A stretch of 64,000 bases of DNA from Bacteroidia bacterium. GTDB lineage: Bacteria > Bacteroidota > Bacteroidia > SXHM01. Location of the stretch: positions 15,337 through 79,336 of the forward strand of contig JBFWYU010000004.1 of the NCBI GenBank assembly GCA_050186075.1, in the 5' to 3' direction. The notes below the pieces were generated by a model. That model saw only the letters and a list, made by a program, of their open reading frames with translations, had not been told where the DNA came from and ran no database searches. The position numbers and the translations under genes are program-made. Below, piece after piece: positions 6,349 through 31,694 of this stretch (its first letter is position 1; each line of letters begins with the position of its first letter).

Positions 6349-6870
6349 TTACCCGAAATATTCCCTCACCGCCTTCTCCAACTCCTCCCCTTTTTGCGTT
6401 CCTATAAGCAACTTATCACCATTCTTCAGTTCTAGTTGCAGCCCCGTAGTTCCCGAAACATTACGCGCCTTATCCTTTCCCCAACCGCGTATTCCCCATC
6501 CGCCATATTCATAAATAGGTTTGTATTCACGCACATAAGCCTTTTCCAGTTCATCCCACCTCTTCAGTTTATACTTAATCTGAAAAGGAAAAAAACGATA
6601 ATAAACCCCTTCCGCATCCACTTTAGTATCCAACCTCAGCAAAACAAAAAATAAAATCAGCAGCGCAGGAACAGAACTAAACACCAACAGCATTTCATCA
6701 CTTGCCGGATTATCGCCAAACGGTTTACCCAAATAAAATTGCTGATACAAACCATAAACATGCAATCCTGCAACTCCAAAAATAATAAGCCATAGCCACC
6801 ATTGGGTAAAGCGTTGCGTTTCGGTGAAGGGTTTCATAGTGTATAAAGCATTAGTCCGGAAGGATTTCAT
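6349..6870 (-). CDS. Hypothetical membrane protein: two N-terminal TM helices and a C-terminal Gly/Trp-rich domain (bacterial PH-like?)
   Basis: 173 aa. Hydrophobic segments WWLWLIIFGVAGL and LLVFSSVPALLILFFVLL. C-terminus YEYGGWGIRGWGKDKARNVSGTTGLQLELKNGDKLLIG. Alternative start MKPF at 6837. Last gene of a minus-strand operon; terminator immediately downstream. Confidence 0.45.
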   Translation of the reverse strand: MKSFRTNALYTMKPFTETQRFTQWWLWLIIFGVAGLHVYGLYQQFYLGKPFGDNPASDEMLLVFSSVPALLILFFVLLRLDTKVDAEGVYYRFFPFQIKYKLKRWDELEKAYVREYKPIYEYGGWGIRGWGKDKARNVSGTTGLQLELKNGDKLLIGTQKGEELEKAVREYFG

Positions 6871-7402
6871 TGTCTAACTTTCTCATCAATCTGCTACAAA
6901 ACAATAGCAACTCAATTGCATCTATTTTTTGTATTTCAAAATTACCATGAGCTTTAGGATTACGAATTGCTAAAACCATTCCAGCAAAAATATATTTATA
7001 CCCTTCTTGCATTCCTTTCCAATCATCTTCGTCCTCGTTAAAGAGTCTAATTACCGGATTTTCTTGATTAAAAGCTTTCATCATAAGGCTTGTACCATCA
7101 TCTGTTTTTTTCGTTTTGCCTTTATAGTTCTTTTTAACTCTGCTAACAACTTCTACAATTGCGGCATAAACAGATTCTTTATAGTATTTATCATGAAACA
7201 ATTTAATAGAAACTTTATTAATCAAGGGATGTAATAAATCCGAAAGTTCTTTAAAACTACTCTTACTATCTAATTTATTAACTACTCTTCTTTTATTTTT
7301 AGGTTTATTGACGTCAATAAATACATCTATCGCTTTTTTAGCATCAGATTTTGAAATTTTGACCTTTTGAGCAATTATTTCTACTAGTTGAGCTTTGTTC
7401 AT
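6851..7402 (-). CDS. HU-like N-terminal helix segment fused to a HEPN-domain protein (predicted RNase, Rx4H motif RNPKAH)
   Basis: First ~31 aa MNKAQLVEIIAQKVKISKSDAKKAIDVFIDV match the alpha1-alpha2 region of Bacteroidetes HU proteins; the HU beta-arm is absent. C-terminus ...YKYIFAGMVLAIRNPKAHGNFEIQKIDAIELLLF carries the HEPN Rx4-6H signature (TIGR02391-like). Confidence 0.6.
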   Translation of the reverse strand: MNKAQLVEIIAQKVKISKSDAKKAIDVFIDVNKPKNKRRVVNKLDSKSSFKELSDLLHPLINKVSIKLFHDKYYKESVYAAIVEVVSRVKKNYKGKTKKTDDGTSLMMKAFNQENPVIRLFNEDEDDWKGMQEGYKYIFAGMVLAIRNPKAHGNFEIQKIDAIELLLFCSRLMRKLDNEILPD

Positions 7403-7487
7403 TTTACAACATATAAGTTTTCATACCCCAAAACTACCCAATTCCCGGGCACCCAACAAAAACCCTCCAAACTCTGCCATTTTCCCC

Positions 7488-7730
7488 TTACTTCTCGCCA
7501 TAAACCCTTGGCGTCTTTCCATATTCCTCTGGCGTCCTGCCAAAATTTCCTATATTCTTGCCAAATTTTCCTATATTCTTCCTAAAATCCTCTGTATCCT
7601 TGCCAAATTTCTCTGTATTCTTCCTGAAATCCTTTATATCCTTACCAAAATCATCTGTATTCTTACTAAATTCCTCTGTCTCCTTCCTGAATTTCTCTGT
7701 CTCCTCATCTGACACAATATGATCCTTCAC
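7488..7730 (-). CDS. Possible small protein made of 7-aa (F-x-K-x-T-E/D-E/D) tandem repeats; may be a non-coding 21-bp repeat instead
   Basis: 80 aa ORF, ...FRKETEEFSKNTDDFGKDIKDFRKNTEKFGKDTEDFRKNIGKFGKNIGNFGRTPEE...; same orientation as the two downstream genes. The opposite strand also gives an open (hydrophobic) frame, so coding status is unresolved. Confidence 0.3.
   Translation of the reverse strand: MKDHIVSDEETEKFRKETEEFSKNTDDFGKDIKDFRKNTEKFGKDTEDFRKNIGKFGKNIGNFGRTPEEYGKTPRVYGEK
7508..7718. repeat. Tandem array of ~10 degenerate 21-bp direct repeats
   Basis: Units tatattcttgccaaattttcc / tatattcttcctaaaatcctc / tgtatccttgccaaatttctc / tgtattcttcctgaaatcctt / tatatccttaccaaaatcatc / tgtattcttactaaattcctc / tgtctccttcctgaatttctc / tgtctcctcatctgacacaat, all in 21-nt phase. 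Confidence 0.75.
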
Positions 7731-7871
7731 AAACCCTCCTCACACCAAAACCACTAAACCCATCTCACTGCTCTTAGGTATATAACTTTTAACTCTTTTT
7801 ATGAAAAATCACCTTTGCGTCCCTGCACCTTTGCGAGCAATCTTATTTATCTTTGCCCAAAACCTATCACC

Positions 7872-9179
7872 ATGAAATACGCTCAAATTCCCAACAAACT
7901 CTTTATTGAAAACCGCAACCGTTTAGTCCAAAAACTGAAACCAAACTCAGTTGCCATTTTCAATAGCAATGATATTATGCCCACCAATGCCGATGGCACC
8001 ATGGCCTTCCGCCAGAACAGCGATTTGTTTTACCTCAGCGGCATCGACCAGGAAGAAAGCATCCTCATCCTCTTCCCCGATTCATTAAATAAGGACTACC
8101 GTGAAATCCTCTTCGTGCGCGAAACCAACGAGCACATTGCCATTTGGGAAGGCGCAAAACTTACCAAACAACAAGCTACCGAAGTTTCAGGTATAAAAAC
8201 CGTTTTCTGGCTCTCCGAGTTCGAGCGCGTGTTCAACACCGTTATGGCCGAAGCCCAAAACGTTTACCTTAACACCAACGAGCACCTGCGCGCCACCATT
8301 GAAGTAGAAACCCGCGATGCCCGCTTTATTAAAAAGTGTAAAGACCGTTTCCCCTTACATAACTATGAGCGCAGCTTTCCCCTTCTCATGGAACTCCGCT
8401 CCATAAAATCAGAAACCGAAGTAGAACTCATCAAACAAGCCTGCGCCATCACCAAAAAAGGATTTCTGCGCACCCTCAGTTTTGTAAAACCCGGAGTTAT
8501 GGAATACGAAATTGAAGCCGAACTCATCCACGAGTTTGTCCGCAACCGCTCGCGCGGCTTTGCCTACGGACCAATTATAGCCTCGGGCCTCAACTCCTGT
8601 GTGCTTCACTATGTTGAAAATAACCAGCAATGCAAAGACGGTGATATCCTGTTAATGGACGTGGCAGCCGAATACGCCAACTACGCCTCAGACCTTACCC
8701 GTTGCATTCCAGTAAACGGCAAATTTACCGAAAGACAAAAACAGGTTTACAATGCCGTTCTCCGCGTTATGAAAGAAGCAACTTCCATGCTTCGCCCGGG
8801 AATTATCATCAGCGAGTTTAATAAGGAAGTAGGTAAAATAATGGAGAAGGAATTAATCGGTCTTGGCCTGTTCACCGAAAAAGATGTGCGAGACCAGGAC
8901 AAAGACAAACCTCTTTACAAAAAGTATTTCATGCACGGCACCTCACACTTCCTTGGTCTGGATGTTCACGATGTGGGTGATTTCAATAAACCCGTTCAAC
9001 CCGGAATGGTCTTTACCTGCGAACCCGGCATCTACATACCTGCCGAAAAAATAGGCATCCGCTTAGAAAACGATATTTTGGTTACCAGCGGCAATCCCGT
9101 TGACCTCATGGCCGATATTCCTTTGGAAGCAAATGATATTGAAGCCCTGATGGCAGAATCAGTGAAGGTTCTTGTATAA
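7872..9179 (+). CDS. Xaa-Pro aminopeptidase, M24B family (aminopeptidase P-like)
   Basis: N-terminal AMP_N-like region and C-terminal pita-bread fold with metal ligands (DVAAEYANYASDLTR, HGTSHFLGLDVHD, EPGIY). Annotated ORF begins at TTG 7815; first ATG (MKYAQIP) at 7872 preferred. Confidence 0.85.
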   Translation: MKYAQIPNKLFIENRNRLVQKLKPNSVAIFNSNDIMPTNADGTMAFRQNSDLFYLSGIDQEESILILFPDSLNKDYREILFVRETNEHIAIWEGAKLTKQQATEVSGIKTVFWLSEFERVFNTVMAEAQNVYLNTNEHLRATIEVETRDARFIKKCKDRFPLHNYERSFPLLMELRSIKSETEVELIKQACAITKKGFLRTLSFVKPGVMEYEIEAELIHEFVRNRSRGFAYGPIIASGLNSCVLHYVENNQQCKDGDILLMDVAAEYANYASDLTRCIPVNGKFTERQKQVYNAVLRVMKEATSMLRPGIIISEFNKEVGKIMEKELIGLGLFTEKDVRDQDKDKPLYKKYFMHGTSHFLGLDVHDVGDFNKPVQPGMVFTCEPGIYIPAEKIGIRLENDILVTSGNPVDLMADIPLEANDIEALMAESVKVLV

Positions 9180-29825: not shown

Positions 29826-30935
29826 CTATTTGCTTTTCAAAATCCAGTTCAGTCGTAAATTAAATGTCTTGAAATTTTTCCAGTCAGGCGAATTGTTGGT
29901 GTATTTGGGTTGAGAAAGTGAGGCAAAGTCAAAATTAATGTTCATTGGTATTTTAGTCAACTTGTAAAGAGGAACCTGAAGTCCGAGCCCGTATGTGAAA
30001 GGGGTAATTTTGTCGTAGTTGATGGATGGGTAACCAAAGTCATATTGTTTTTCAAAATAGTAACCAGCGCGAAGTGATAATATCTCAAAAAGCATTAGTT
30101 CACCACCTACCCGAATAGCGGTCTCATATTCTGAGTTTAAAAGGTTTTGGTATTCACCTTGAACTAAAAAAACAAGAGTTGTTAAAGTGTCTATAAGCAC
30201 GTGCTTGGCAAGGTTAAACTGATAATTTGCGCCAAAGCGAGCAACAACGGGCAAATCGTTTTTAATCGTTGTTCCGTTATATTCAAGTGTGATTTTGGAA
30301 TTATTAAGATTTGAAATGCTTGCCCCGACATTTAGTGAATGTCCGGTGCTTTGCTTTTGTAAGAATTTGATTTTTTTAATTATCCCAAAGTCAACGTAAA
30401 GTGAGTTGGCGGCTTTGTCAAGTCCCGGCTGCCAAACTAAATTGGTTAAGTTAAGTCCGATAAGAAGATTTTTTATTGGTTCAGAAGATACAGTCAACGT
30501 ATTTCTTTCGGAATAAGGTTTTTTGTTTACGTTTTGGATTTCTGTCTTACCAAAATCAAAGCGAAATTTAGAAACAGCAATCTGTATAGATGGTCCAGGT
30601 CCTGTTGGTAAAGGTGTCCACCCGCTCTTTTTAAACATATTGCGTAACGATAAGTTTAATCCTGCACTGAAATACCAATAATAACCTTCTGTCAAATAGA
30701 ATGGCGGTGGTGTATAAGAGCCATTTGTTTCTACACCTTTAATTGTTGCAGCACCCGCTGGATTAAAATAAATAGTAGTCAAGTCACCATCAATAGAAGT
30801 ATAACTTCTACCCATTGCCTCTGCACGTGCATTTTGTTGTCTGCCAAAAAAATTCTCTTTTAGGAAATAGTATTTATACTGTCCGAAAGAAGTAAACGGA
30901 AGTAGTAAAAGAAAAATGATTATCAGTCGTGTCAT
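29826..30935 (-). CDS. Outer-membrane beta-barrel protein, PorV/PorQ-like (T9SS-associated family), tentative
   Basis: Signal peptide. N-terminal ARAEAMGRSYTSIDGDLTTIYFNPAGAA motif reminiscent of the PorV/PorQ family; beta-strand periodicity; C-terminal aromatic. Confidence 0.4.
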   Translation of the reverse strand: MTRLIIIFLLLLPFTSFGQYKYYFLKENFFGRQQNARAEAMGRSYTSIDGDLTTIYFNPAGAATIKGVETNGSYTPPPFYLTEGYYWYFSAGLNLSLRNMFKKSGWTPLPTGPGPSIQIAVSKFRFDFGKTEIQNVNKKPYSERNTLTVSSEPIKNLLIGLNLTNLVWQPGLDKAANSLYVDFGIIKKIKFLQKQSTGHSLNVGASISNLNNSKITLEYNGTTIKNDLPVVARFGANYQFNLAKHVLIDTLTTLVFLVQGEYQNLLNSEYETAIRVGGELMLFEILSLRAGYYFEKQYDFGYPSINYDKITPFTYGLGLQVPLYKLTKIPMNINFDFASLSQPKYTNNSPDWKNFKTFNLRLNWILKSK

Positions 30936-31169
30936 TGGTCGTTTGCTTTAATTGCCCATAACTTATCTATACCCGAAACCTTATTTCGCATATCCACACC
31001 CCCTTGGTTAGACTTGCGAAAATTTGGTGTTATTGCATAGCATTCTGTCAACAACATTATTAAAATTATTTTATAAATCAAATACCAACAGCAATTTGTT
31101 GCTGAGGAAATACGGCCTTATACCGTAGTTGTTAAGGATGCACAGAAAAAGTAAAAGTATGTACACAGA

Positions 31170-31421
31170 ATTATAATGTTTGCATATATACTTATAAACT
31201 ATGCCCGGAGATTTATAAAGTTTGCAGAGATACTTTTTAACTATGTATAGTCGTTTATAAAGTTTGCCTGCATACTTTTAAACTATGCATAAAGAATATA
31301 TAAGTATGCACGCTTAGTTGTAAACTATGCATACAGAATTATAAAGTTTGTGTGCAGAATTATAAACTATGTATGCAGAATTATAACGTTTGCACAAATA
31401 CTTATACTTTTTGCAAGCATA
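31170..31421. repeat. Array of 12 strictly phased 21-bp AT-rich direct repeats (iteron-like), alternating two subtypes
   Basis: Units start at 31170, 31191, 31212 ... 31401 (exact 21-nt spacing). Type A ttataaagtttgcNNNNNatac, type B ttataaactatgNNNNNagaa (42-bp super-unit x6). Confidence 0.8.
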
Positions 31422-31694
31422 CTTAACTAAAATGGCGGAAAAAGAAAAAGCTTTCTTCACAAACCTGTAAGCGTTGCGAAGAAAGCTTTAAACTCCGGCT
31501 GCCGGACTGCCGGCTAAAAATTATTAATTGATGATGAGTGAATAAGGTTGACTCCAATTGCCTGTTCCGTCTTTAGGGGTGGTTACCCTATGGCGAAAAT
31601 ACTGACGCGTTACCGGCTGCAAGCCTGCAACAGTTGTAGTTGCCTTTATAGTTGTTGGCAAAGGTTGCCAGTTAATACCATCACCTGATGTAGC

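Follow-up and report, generated by a model that had tools for sequence, protein, structure and literature searches.

A non-coding 21-bp tandem array between the divergent HEPN and pepP genes of a Bacteroidia bacterium, with phased A/T tracts and a possible architectural role

Introduction

What does a tandem repeat do when it lies between two divergent genes, can be read as protein on both strands and has a unit length equal to two turns of the DNA helix? The question is raised by a 64,000-nt stretch of a Bacteroidia bacterium (assembly GCA_050186075.1, contig JBFWYU010000004.1, positions 15,337 to 79,336 of the forward strand), the whole of which is referred to here as the window. In its 469-nt divergent region between a HEPN gene (6851..7402, minus strand) and the Xaa-Pro aminopeptidase gene pepP (ATG at 7872, plus strand), an initial annotation had pointed out a 21-bp repeat and had suggested that it might be a heptad-repeat peptide, a phased regulatory array or a contingency switch. 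The repeat and its setting, given there as a divergent region of about 470 bp, are as described. The array is non-coding, and the phasing of its A/T tracts is extreme for the window. Our preferred reading, held tentatively and at a little under an even chance, is that the array is an architectural minisatellite in upstream DNA common to two divergent promoters.

Extent and unit structure of the array

Head-to-tail units of 21 nt occupy window positions 7478-7709, with zero indels between units. Read on the minus strand, 11 clear units run from 7709 down to 7499 and are followed by one degenerate, promoter-proximal unit at 7478-7498. The initial annotation had placed about ten units at 7508-7718; the repeat itself was recovered far beyond chance by Tandem Repeats Finder (TRF) and by a lag scan, and its extent and unit number are revised here to 7478-7709 and 11+1. 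The element is listed as follows:

7478..7709, unstranded: 21-bp minisatellite defined by TRF, unit layout and lag scan, with a minus-strand consensus of about GGCAAGAATACAGAGGAATTT and 42-/63-nt higher-order structure

TRF reported period 21 over 7574-7705 (6.3 copies, 73% matches), period 42 over 7553-7700 with the best score (170, 78% matches) and also period 63. The mean identity of the units to their consensus is 0.75, and conservation within them is scattered, leaving no contiguous conserved core. A lag-autocorrelation scan of the 64 kb at lags 6-90 detected two periodic regions only, this array and one at 31118-31448, both with signal at lags 21, 42, 63 and 84. Lags 7 and 14 gave no signal at the array, whose unit is a true 21-mer.

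No second copy of the consensus unit was found within the 64-kb window (0 expected in shuffles), and no matches to the array were found in viral contigs, plasmids or phages, leaving a dispersed or mobile origin unsupported. Rfam gave no match at the array, the only RNA family in the window being a tRNA elsewhere, and folding of both array strands as RNA gave weak structures and nothing notable.

As a kind of object, the array is an intergenic minisatellite, which is a known class; tandem repeats are reported to be over-represented in the intergenic DNA of prokaryotes (PMC12418385). With other minisatellites and variable-number tandem repeats it shares tandem units of tens of bp, an intergenic position, a strain-variable copy number and units of 3n length that give rise to small open reading frames (ORFs). 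Mycobacterial interspersed repetitive units, in contrast, form a single dispersed family whose unit recurs at many loci, whereas the present unit is unique within 64 kb and the arrays of sister strains at the same slot are unrelated in sequence.

A 12-nt direct repeat brackets the array at 7457-7468 and 7728-7739 (plus strand CAAAAACCCTCC and CACAAACCCTCC, minus strand GGAGGGTTTKTG). A similar CACAAAAACCCCTC comes after the array of the sister haplotype L152, and the bracketing could be due to chance.

Coding potential of the array

ORFs cross the array on both strands, as had been described, since 21 is divisible by three and several frames of the unit are free of stops. They are the following:

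7488..7730, minus strand: 80-aa ORF with a GTG start and the heptad xKxTExF, carrying a gene call in GCA_050249275.1, judged spurious
7395..7712, plus strand: 105-aa Leu/Ile-rich ORF with a TTG start, interrupted by stops in the relative L005 and without a family, judged spurious
7388..7585 and 7558..7722, plus strand: two further partial ORFs from the ORF list

The minus-strand ORF, whose translation includes MKDHIVSDEETEKFRK, is open and co-oriented with the HEPN gene, begins with GGAGG-N4-GTG, was called as a gene in another assembly, and stands where an antitoxin gene stands upstream of the ParE-like toxin in the sister haplotype L156. It might be taken for a small heptad-repeat protein, possibly the antitoxin of the HEPN protein, and the plus-strand hydrophobic ORF might be taken for one as well. 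Four independent lines of evidence, namely a codon test among units, comparison with a close relative, the boundaries of the repeat and homology, give good support to the opposite conclusion that the array is non-coding.

In the codon test, pairwise unit differences at codon positions 1, 2 and 3 of the ORF frame were 0.405, 0.340 and 0.382 (11 units; P=0.47, the share of random seven-position sets doing as well). Of the single-base codon differences among units, 23 were synonymous and 132 nonsynonymous, a smaller synonymous share than in any of the other five frames, and neither codon-position bias nor synonymous bias among units was present in any frame. The suggested heptad-repeat peptide is therefore not borne out by this test.

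Relatives of the HEPN protein were sought among 5.8 billion proteins, and a single close relative (P0001, 95% identical) was obtained, whose contig L005, found in two samples, carries a homologous array. In L005, a 1-nt deletion cuts the minus-strand ORF short at 13 codons, and the continuing frame lacks a start codon; the GGAGG before the GTG reads GGTAGG; and the middle units are altered with loss of the acidic/basic heptad (FRKNTEKFGKDTEDF to LRNYIDTLRNCIGTF), so that residues are radically changed. Stops interrupt the plus-strand ORF as well, and the breakage of both frames in a close relative is the outcome that the initial annotation had set in advance as telling against a coding repeat. 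The window and L005 copies of the HEPN gene share 95.1% identity and differ by 12 synonymous and 11 nonsynonymous codon changes; the gene's ratio of nonsynonymous to synonymous substitution rates is estimated near 0.3, and the gene thus appears to be under purifying selection. The array diverges much faster than its flanks.

The boundaries of repeat and ORF do not coincide. The window array runs past the stop codon of the minus-strand ORF, which sits inside the degenerate unit, and L005 is longer by 63 nt, exactly three units (14+1 against 11+1), which straddle the position of that stop codon; the repeat thus disregards the boundaries of the ORF. The promoter predicted for this strand is also downstream of the ORF.

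No Pfam or NCBIfam family was assigned to the minus-strand ORF and no family to the plus-strand one, and a word-index search did not find a homologue of the former. An exhaustive HMMER search of 1.84 billion representatives did return 41 heptad-array ORFs at E<=1e-3, the best with E = 5.6e-12, which counts in favour of a protein. These matches are other heptad arrays (VFGKNTK, FGKNVPA, NTREFGV, TSDFRLP, DFRKLSE and others), of which only the periodic part aligns; their flanks are mutually unrelated and often look like out-of-frame translation. Since every unit repeats one match, the score gauges the agreement of one 7-residue consensus, and on a rough estimate a library with so many heptad arrays should contain a 5-of-7 heptad match by chance. 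We read the matches as further cases of the same annotation artefact and not as a protein family. Taking both sides together, a heptad-repeat protein encoded by the array is highly improbable.

Public collections contain many heptad-array "proteins" with junk-like, unrelated flanks (P0147, P0152-P0159 and P0171), which probably arise when non-coding DNA repeats of 21 or 7 nt are translated; TSDFRLP is a 7-nt repeat read in three frames. Intergenic heptanucleotide repeats are abundant, are of unknown function and translate to 7-residue periodic "proteins" (SPADE survey, PMC6344855; TAACTGA, PMC4679880). Several HMMER matches, such as the TSDFRLP arrays, resemble this class, from which the window array differs in its true 21-mer unit.

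A/T phasing and predicted curvature

Each unit contains one A(n)T(m) tract (starts at 7542, 7563, 7584, 7605, 7627, 7647, 7668 and 7690), so that one tract comes round with every 21-bp unit, or two turns of the helix. As a parameter-free measure of this phasing, the Fourier amplitude at 10.5 bp was computed for AA/TT/AT steps. The array is the maximum of the window, at 0.14-0.15 (window median 0.028, 99th percentile 0.080), and L005 keeps its phasing at the 99.6-99.8th percentile despite its diverged units.

A dinucleotide wedge model ranks the array first in predicted curvature among the 190-bp pieces of the 64 kb, with an end-to-end/contour ratio of 0.64 against a median of 0.954. When the unit length was altered in the model, units of 19, 20 and 23 bp were predicted to be less bent (0.87-0.97) and units of 22 bp similarly bent (0.68).

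The array resembles phased A-tract curved DNA upstream of promoters in having one tract per two turns, extreme 10.5-bp phasing and a predicted core promoter adjoining. It differs from the classical cases, which have a few tracts about 10-11 bp apart, in being an 11-unit minisatellite whose curvature is a prediction.

Predicted promoters on both sides of the array

Bacteroidota promoters have TTG at -33 and TAnnTTTG at -7. On this pattern, a promoter can be predicted for each of the two divergent genes:

7429..7459, minus strand: predicted Bacteroidetes-type promoter of the HEPN gene, TTG-N17/20-TAGTTTTG, its -7 box ending 27 nt upstream of the ATG
7790..7871, plus strand: conserved pepP upstream region TAACTCTTTTTATGAAAA, with CACCTTTGCG at 7810-7819 and 7826-7835 and a putative -7 box TATCTTTG at 7848-7855

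TAnnTTTG occurs in 7300-7900 at two sites only, one on the minus strand (7436-7429) and one on the plus strand (7848-7855); the consensus scan found none on the minus strand in 7437-7900. The full motif TTG-N17-21-TAnnTTTG has seven sites in the window, three of which sit 8-36 nt upstream of the ATG of a long ORF, so that the pattern has predictive value. The predicted -7 box of the HEPN gene is retained in L005 as TAGCTTTG, and an alignment of eight haplotypes shows the last ~85 nt of the putative pepP promoter to be conserved. No terminator-like site was found in 7250-7950, and hence none between the array and the HEPN gene. A sigma-70 promoter scan was uninformative, as expected for Bacteroidota.

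The array starts at the predicted -33 element of the HEPN gene and reaches about 250 bp upstream. With the predicted HEPN promoter located between the array and the ATG, the array would be upstream DNA common to this promoter and the divergent one of pepP.

Short direct repeats occur just upstream of the predicted pepP -7 box in every haplotype, with differing sequences: CACCTTTGCG twice at window 7810-7835, CGCAAAGG x2.4 at L005 81-99 (on the L005 strand, which has the opposite orientation), AAATCTGTGC x2.9 at L152 3450-3477 and AATCTTTCC x3.9 at L160 1664-1697.

The same slot in sister haplotypes

Relatives were found via pepP, and the slot to the left of pepP was compared across haplotypes. 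The haplotypes are listed below with their pepP identity in brackets:

L151-153 and L168-176 (95%): a Cro/C1 helix-turn-helix (HTH) gene in place of the HEPN gene; 21 x 7.6 array AGCAATTAAGTCTGAATATTT with an invariant AATTAAGTC core
L166 and L167 (in the same 90%-identity cluster as P0012): cassette gene absent; 42 x 6.6 array, 94% identical
L154 and L155 (88%): 21 x 4.8 array GGTTACATACACTTAGCATCC
L160 and L162 (83%): units of 21 nt, of which three point one way and eight the opposite way
L156 (88%): ParE-like pair; upstream array absent, and a 21 x 4.9 array just downstream of pepP
L157 and L177: slot without an array

The slot is wholly different between strains whose pepP genes are more than 90% identical. 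Where a strain has a cassette gene, the array in the slot, if there is one, abuts the 5' end of that gene. The units of L152 and L160 consist of an invariant core of about 9 bp (AATTAAGTC and ATCCCGAA, respectively) and a variable spacer. Twelve contigs, drawn from at least nine samples and several studies, share the L152-type array with 100% identity over 480 nt, and the three assemblies that hold the window array are identical over 1200 nt.

The variable slot corresponds to window 6349-7800, L152 2295-3500, L156 2429-3401, L160 249-1240, L166 3900-4290 and L177 9339-10000. In it a HEPN gene, a Cro/C1 HTH gene or a ParE-like toxin pair precedes the conserved gene of a DUF6141-like membrane protein; in other strains the slot is empty or holds a nos cluster and a fasciclin gene. 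It looks like a hot spot of insertion or replacement for defence or toxin-type cassettes, and the array marks the upstream edge of this slot with its HEPN, Cro/C1 HTH and ParE-like genes.

In L160, the stretch 1013-1360 contains three units of one orientation (CCGGGACAAATTATTTCT...) and after them eight of the inverse orientation (AGAAAGAATTAATCCCGAA...); about 60 nt beyond these lies a long, GC-rich, near-perfect palindrome GGGGAAGTGGGGGCAGACGGGCGCGAC...GTCGCGCCCGTCTGCCCCCACTTCC. The 42-nt array of L166 (3972-4248, also present in L167) has an internal near-palindrome CCGAAGAGTTCTTCGG.

The gene calls over this 42-nt array repeat the case of the window. The Joint Genome Institute (JGI) gene caller read the L166 array as a 124-residue N-terminal extension of pepP (559 aa), and in L167 an ORF of 79 aa is annotated on its opposite strand; both calls are the same artefact of a 3n period. 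The lesson for annotation is that non-coding arrays with units of 3n length become annotated as proteins. At this locus the products have been an 80-aa "hypothetical protein" in the window and, in the sister strain, a false pepP extension and a small ORF, and dozens of similar heptad "proteins" are present in public databases.

The consensus units of the arrays are mutually unrelated. In a comparison of 55 pairs at all rotations and on both strands, the sole significant pair was that of the two halves of the second window array (31154-31406), and the one slot holds five unrelated arrays in strains with 83-95% identical pepP. A common motif or common descent was thereby rejected; the cores "TCTGTAT" and "TTnGCA", picked out by eye, failed the pairwise test.

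All eight arrays found in this uncultured lineage have a period of 21 or 42, in about 145 kb of lineage sequence, which is a small sample; five of the eight are in one slot and are therefore not independent. Nine tandem arrays were found in about 800 kb of unrelated loci, two of them with period 21, and one of those two is coding. It is conceivable, though we think it improbable, that the intergenic arrays of this lineage are held to 21 bp or its double whatever their sequence, by a sequence-independent constraint or a generating mechanism tied to two helical turns. Candidates for such a constraint would be exchangeable architectural or binding modules that travel with the cassettes, or duplication with a fixed 21-bp step. 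The window array would then be one case among several. No account of intergenic 21-bp arrays in Bacteroidota turned up in the searchable library. Should the common 21/42-bp period reflect selection for helical phasing, the arrays would be a simple and evolvable architecture of bacterial promoters. It is the repeated appearance of unrelated 21/42-bp arrays at a single hot spot that merits further study.

Proposed role and alternative explanations

In the reading that we prefer, the array would form strongly and coherently bent, or protein-wrappable, DNA beginning at the predicted -33 element of the HEPN gene. It may act as a static bend, as a phased platform for cooperative protein binding, or as both, and so might tune or insulate the HEPN promoter and possibly that of pepP. 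It would grow and shrink by duplication or loss of blocks of one to three units, on evolutionary and not generational time scales. The phased, two-turn regulatory array suggested by the initial annotation is thus the best supported of its proposals as regards position, upstream of a predicted HEPN promoter, and extreme 10.5-bp phasing, and its regulatory function is still a proposal.

Several points weigh against this reading. Both promoters are consensus predictions, and TAnnTTTG by itself is no more frequent in the window than in shuffles (60 sites, with 68 in shuffled sequence). The curvature is a wedge-model prediction, and column-permuted arrays of equal period were equally curved in 6% of trials. 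The contiguous conserved core expected of a specific binding site is absent here, unlike in the L152 and L160 arrays. Strong phasing or curvature was obtained for three of the seven arrays examined (the window array, L152 and L156); the second window array, L154, L160 and L166 are not predicted to be bent. Bending therefore cannot account for the 21-nt period that all of them have in common, and curvature as its general cause was rejected. The array could simply be tolerated junk.

This last point leads to the alternative that survives best, a minisatellite without function, a side product of slippage or unequal recombination at an insertion hot spot that differs between strains, and tolerated outside the core promoters. 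It accords with units that have decayed to about 75% identity without a contiguous core, with an array diverging much faster than its flanks in the comparison with L005, with the wholly different sequence left of pepP in strains more than 90% identical in that gene, and with the slots of L156, L157 and L177 that lack an array. Neutral decay would, however, leave unexplained why every array found in the lineage has period 21 or 42, why A/T phasing is retained in L005 amid sequence change, and why one slot has received five different arrays. We regard a functionless repeat as rather unlikely, though it deserves serious weight.

A further alternative is an array of iteron- or operator-like sites for one sequence-specific protein that binds cooperatively every two helical turns. 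Plasmid iterons and arrays of the ParR/parC type are likewise direct repeats of about 20-22 bp in 4-12 copies with two-turn spacing and an adjoining promoter. The 21-bp spacing would suit such sites, and so would the AATTAAGTC core of L152 beside a Cro/C1 HTH gene, the ATCCCGAA core of L160 and, in the unrelated Actinomycetota locus L052, a GntR-like gene with a 21 x 8.3 array 50 nt upstream of it. The window array differs in being chromosomal and in lacking a contiguous conserved core; no Rep- or ParR-like gene is nearby, the neighbours being HEPN, DUF6141-like and pepP genes, and the adjacent HEPN protein has just 31 residues of HU, without the DNA-binding arms. The array of L166, moreover, has no cassette gene beside it at all. 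Sites for a single specific protein are thus an improbable explanation of the window array.

Of the ideas with little probability left, one is a module like the type III toxin-antitoxin (TA) systems ToxIN, CptIN and TenpIN, in which RNA of the array would be cut into units by a HEPN ribonuclease (RNase) and the units would neutralise it. The resemblance lies in tandem direct repeats that sit just upstream of a co-oriented gene from an RNase-type superfamily with kinship to defence proteins, in a slot that in L156 holds a TA pair (a ParE-like toxin and a small upstream gene). The likeness fails in the promoter, the terminator, unit identity, toxin family and conservation across homologues: the consensus scan found no promoter motif upstream of the array and its only one downstream, no terminator separates array and gene, the units are 73-78% alike and not near-identical, the array folds weakly, and the toxin does not belong to the ToxN/AbiQ, CptN or TenpN families. 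TRF was run on 64 Ymh-HEPN loci of diverse genomes and detected no array directly upstream of the gene in any of them, and the closest larger homologue ends a type I restriction-modification operon. Such a module is very unlikely.

The array of the Actinomycetota locus L052, a metagenome-assembled genome, occupies 1542-1737 (TCTCACGGTGCAAAAGCAACT, 21 x 8.3, with a 63-nt super-period). It is divergent from a photolyase-like gene followed by the HEPN gene, so that another gene separates array and HEPN, and it is open in several frames with SHxAKxT heptads.

A contingency locus, in which frequent gain and loss of units would switch HEPN or pepP expression, can draw on the 11+1 units of the window strain against 14+1 in L005, yet it is scarcely credible given the three identical assemblies of the window array (consensus assemblies hide minor variants), the 12 identical contigs of the L152 type, units of 21 nt and about 75% likeness that are poor substrates for slippage where the definition needs short (1-9 nt), near-perfect ones, a 21-nt step that alters neither reading frame nor helical phase, and a position outside the predicted -33/-7 spacer. 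The switch proposed in the initial annotation is accordingly not upheld, and the comparison of unit number between strains on which it turned gave identity in three assemblies and a 63-nt gain in the diverged L005; this difference in copy number is evolutionary variation.

Neighbouring genes and a second array in the window

The remaining features around the array are as follows:

6851..7402, minus strand: HEPN gene, 183 aa, Hypoth_Ymh/TIGR02391, with an RNPKAH motif (Pfam PF09509, 2.8e-24; PADLOC PD-Lambda-3_B, 4.4e-12; alignment)
6349..6870, minus strand: gene of a DUF6141-like membrane protein, the conserved downstream partner of the variable cassette gene
7710..7789, unstranded: unique flank separating the array from the conserved pepP upstream region, with the GTG of the minus-strand ORF and a GGAGG that L005 does not retain
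7872..9179, plus strand: Xaa-Pro aminopeptidase gene pepP, divergent from the HEPN gene (Pfam AMP_N and Peptidase_M24; NCBIfam)

Residues 1-31 of the HEPN protein match PF00216, the N-terminus of HU, and are 53-66% identical to real HU genes; a basic stretch follows this part, and the protein falls about 70 residues short of its homologues, which have 240-270 aa. From its sequence, the gene looks like a fusion of the 5' end of an HU gene, perhaps together with its promoter, to a HEPN domain. A scan of metagenome contigs with the HEPN protein for more strains returned only HU genes, which matched its N-terminal 32 residues. No literature linking TIGR02391 with HEPN was found in the searchable library.

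The second array of the window, at 31154-31406, has about 12 units of 21 nt in an alternating 42-nt structure (AAAGTTTGCACACATACTTAT and AAACTATGCATACAGAATTAT). No ORF of at least 50 aa runs across it. It is unrelated in sequence to the array at 7478-7709, has no predicted curvature, and is intergenic, lying about 220 nt upstream of a gene of 369 aa without a Pfam match (29826..30935, minus strand).

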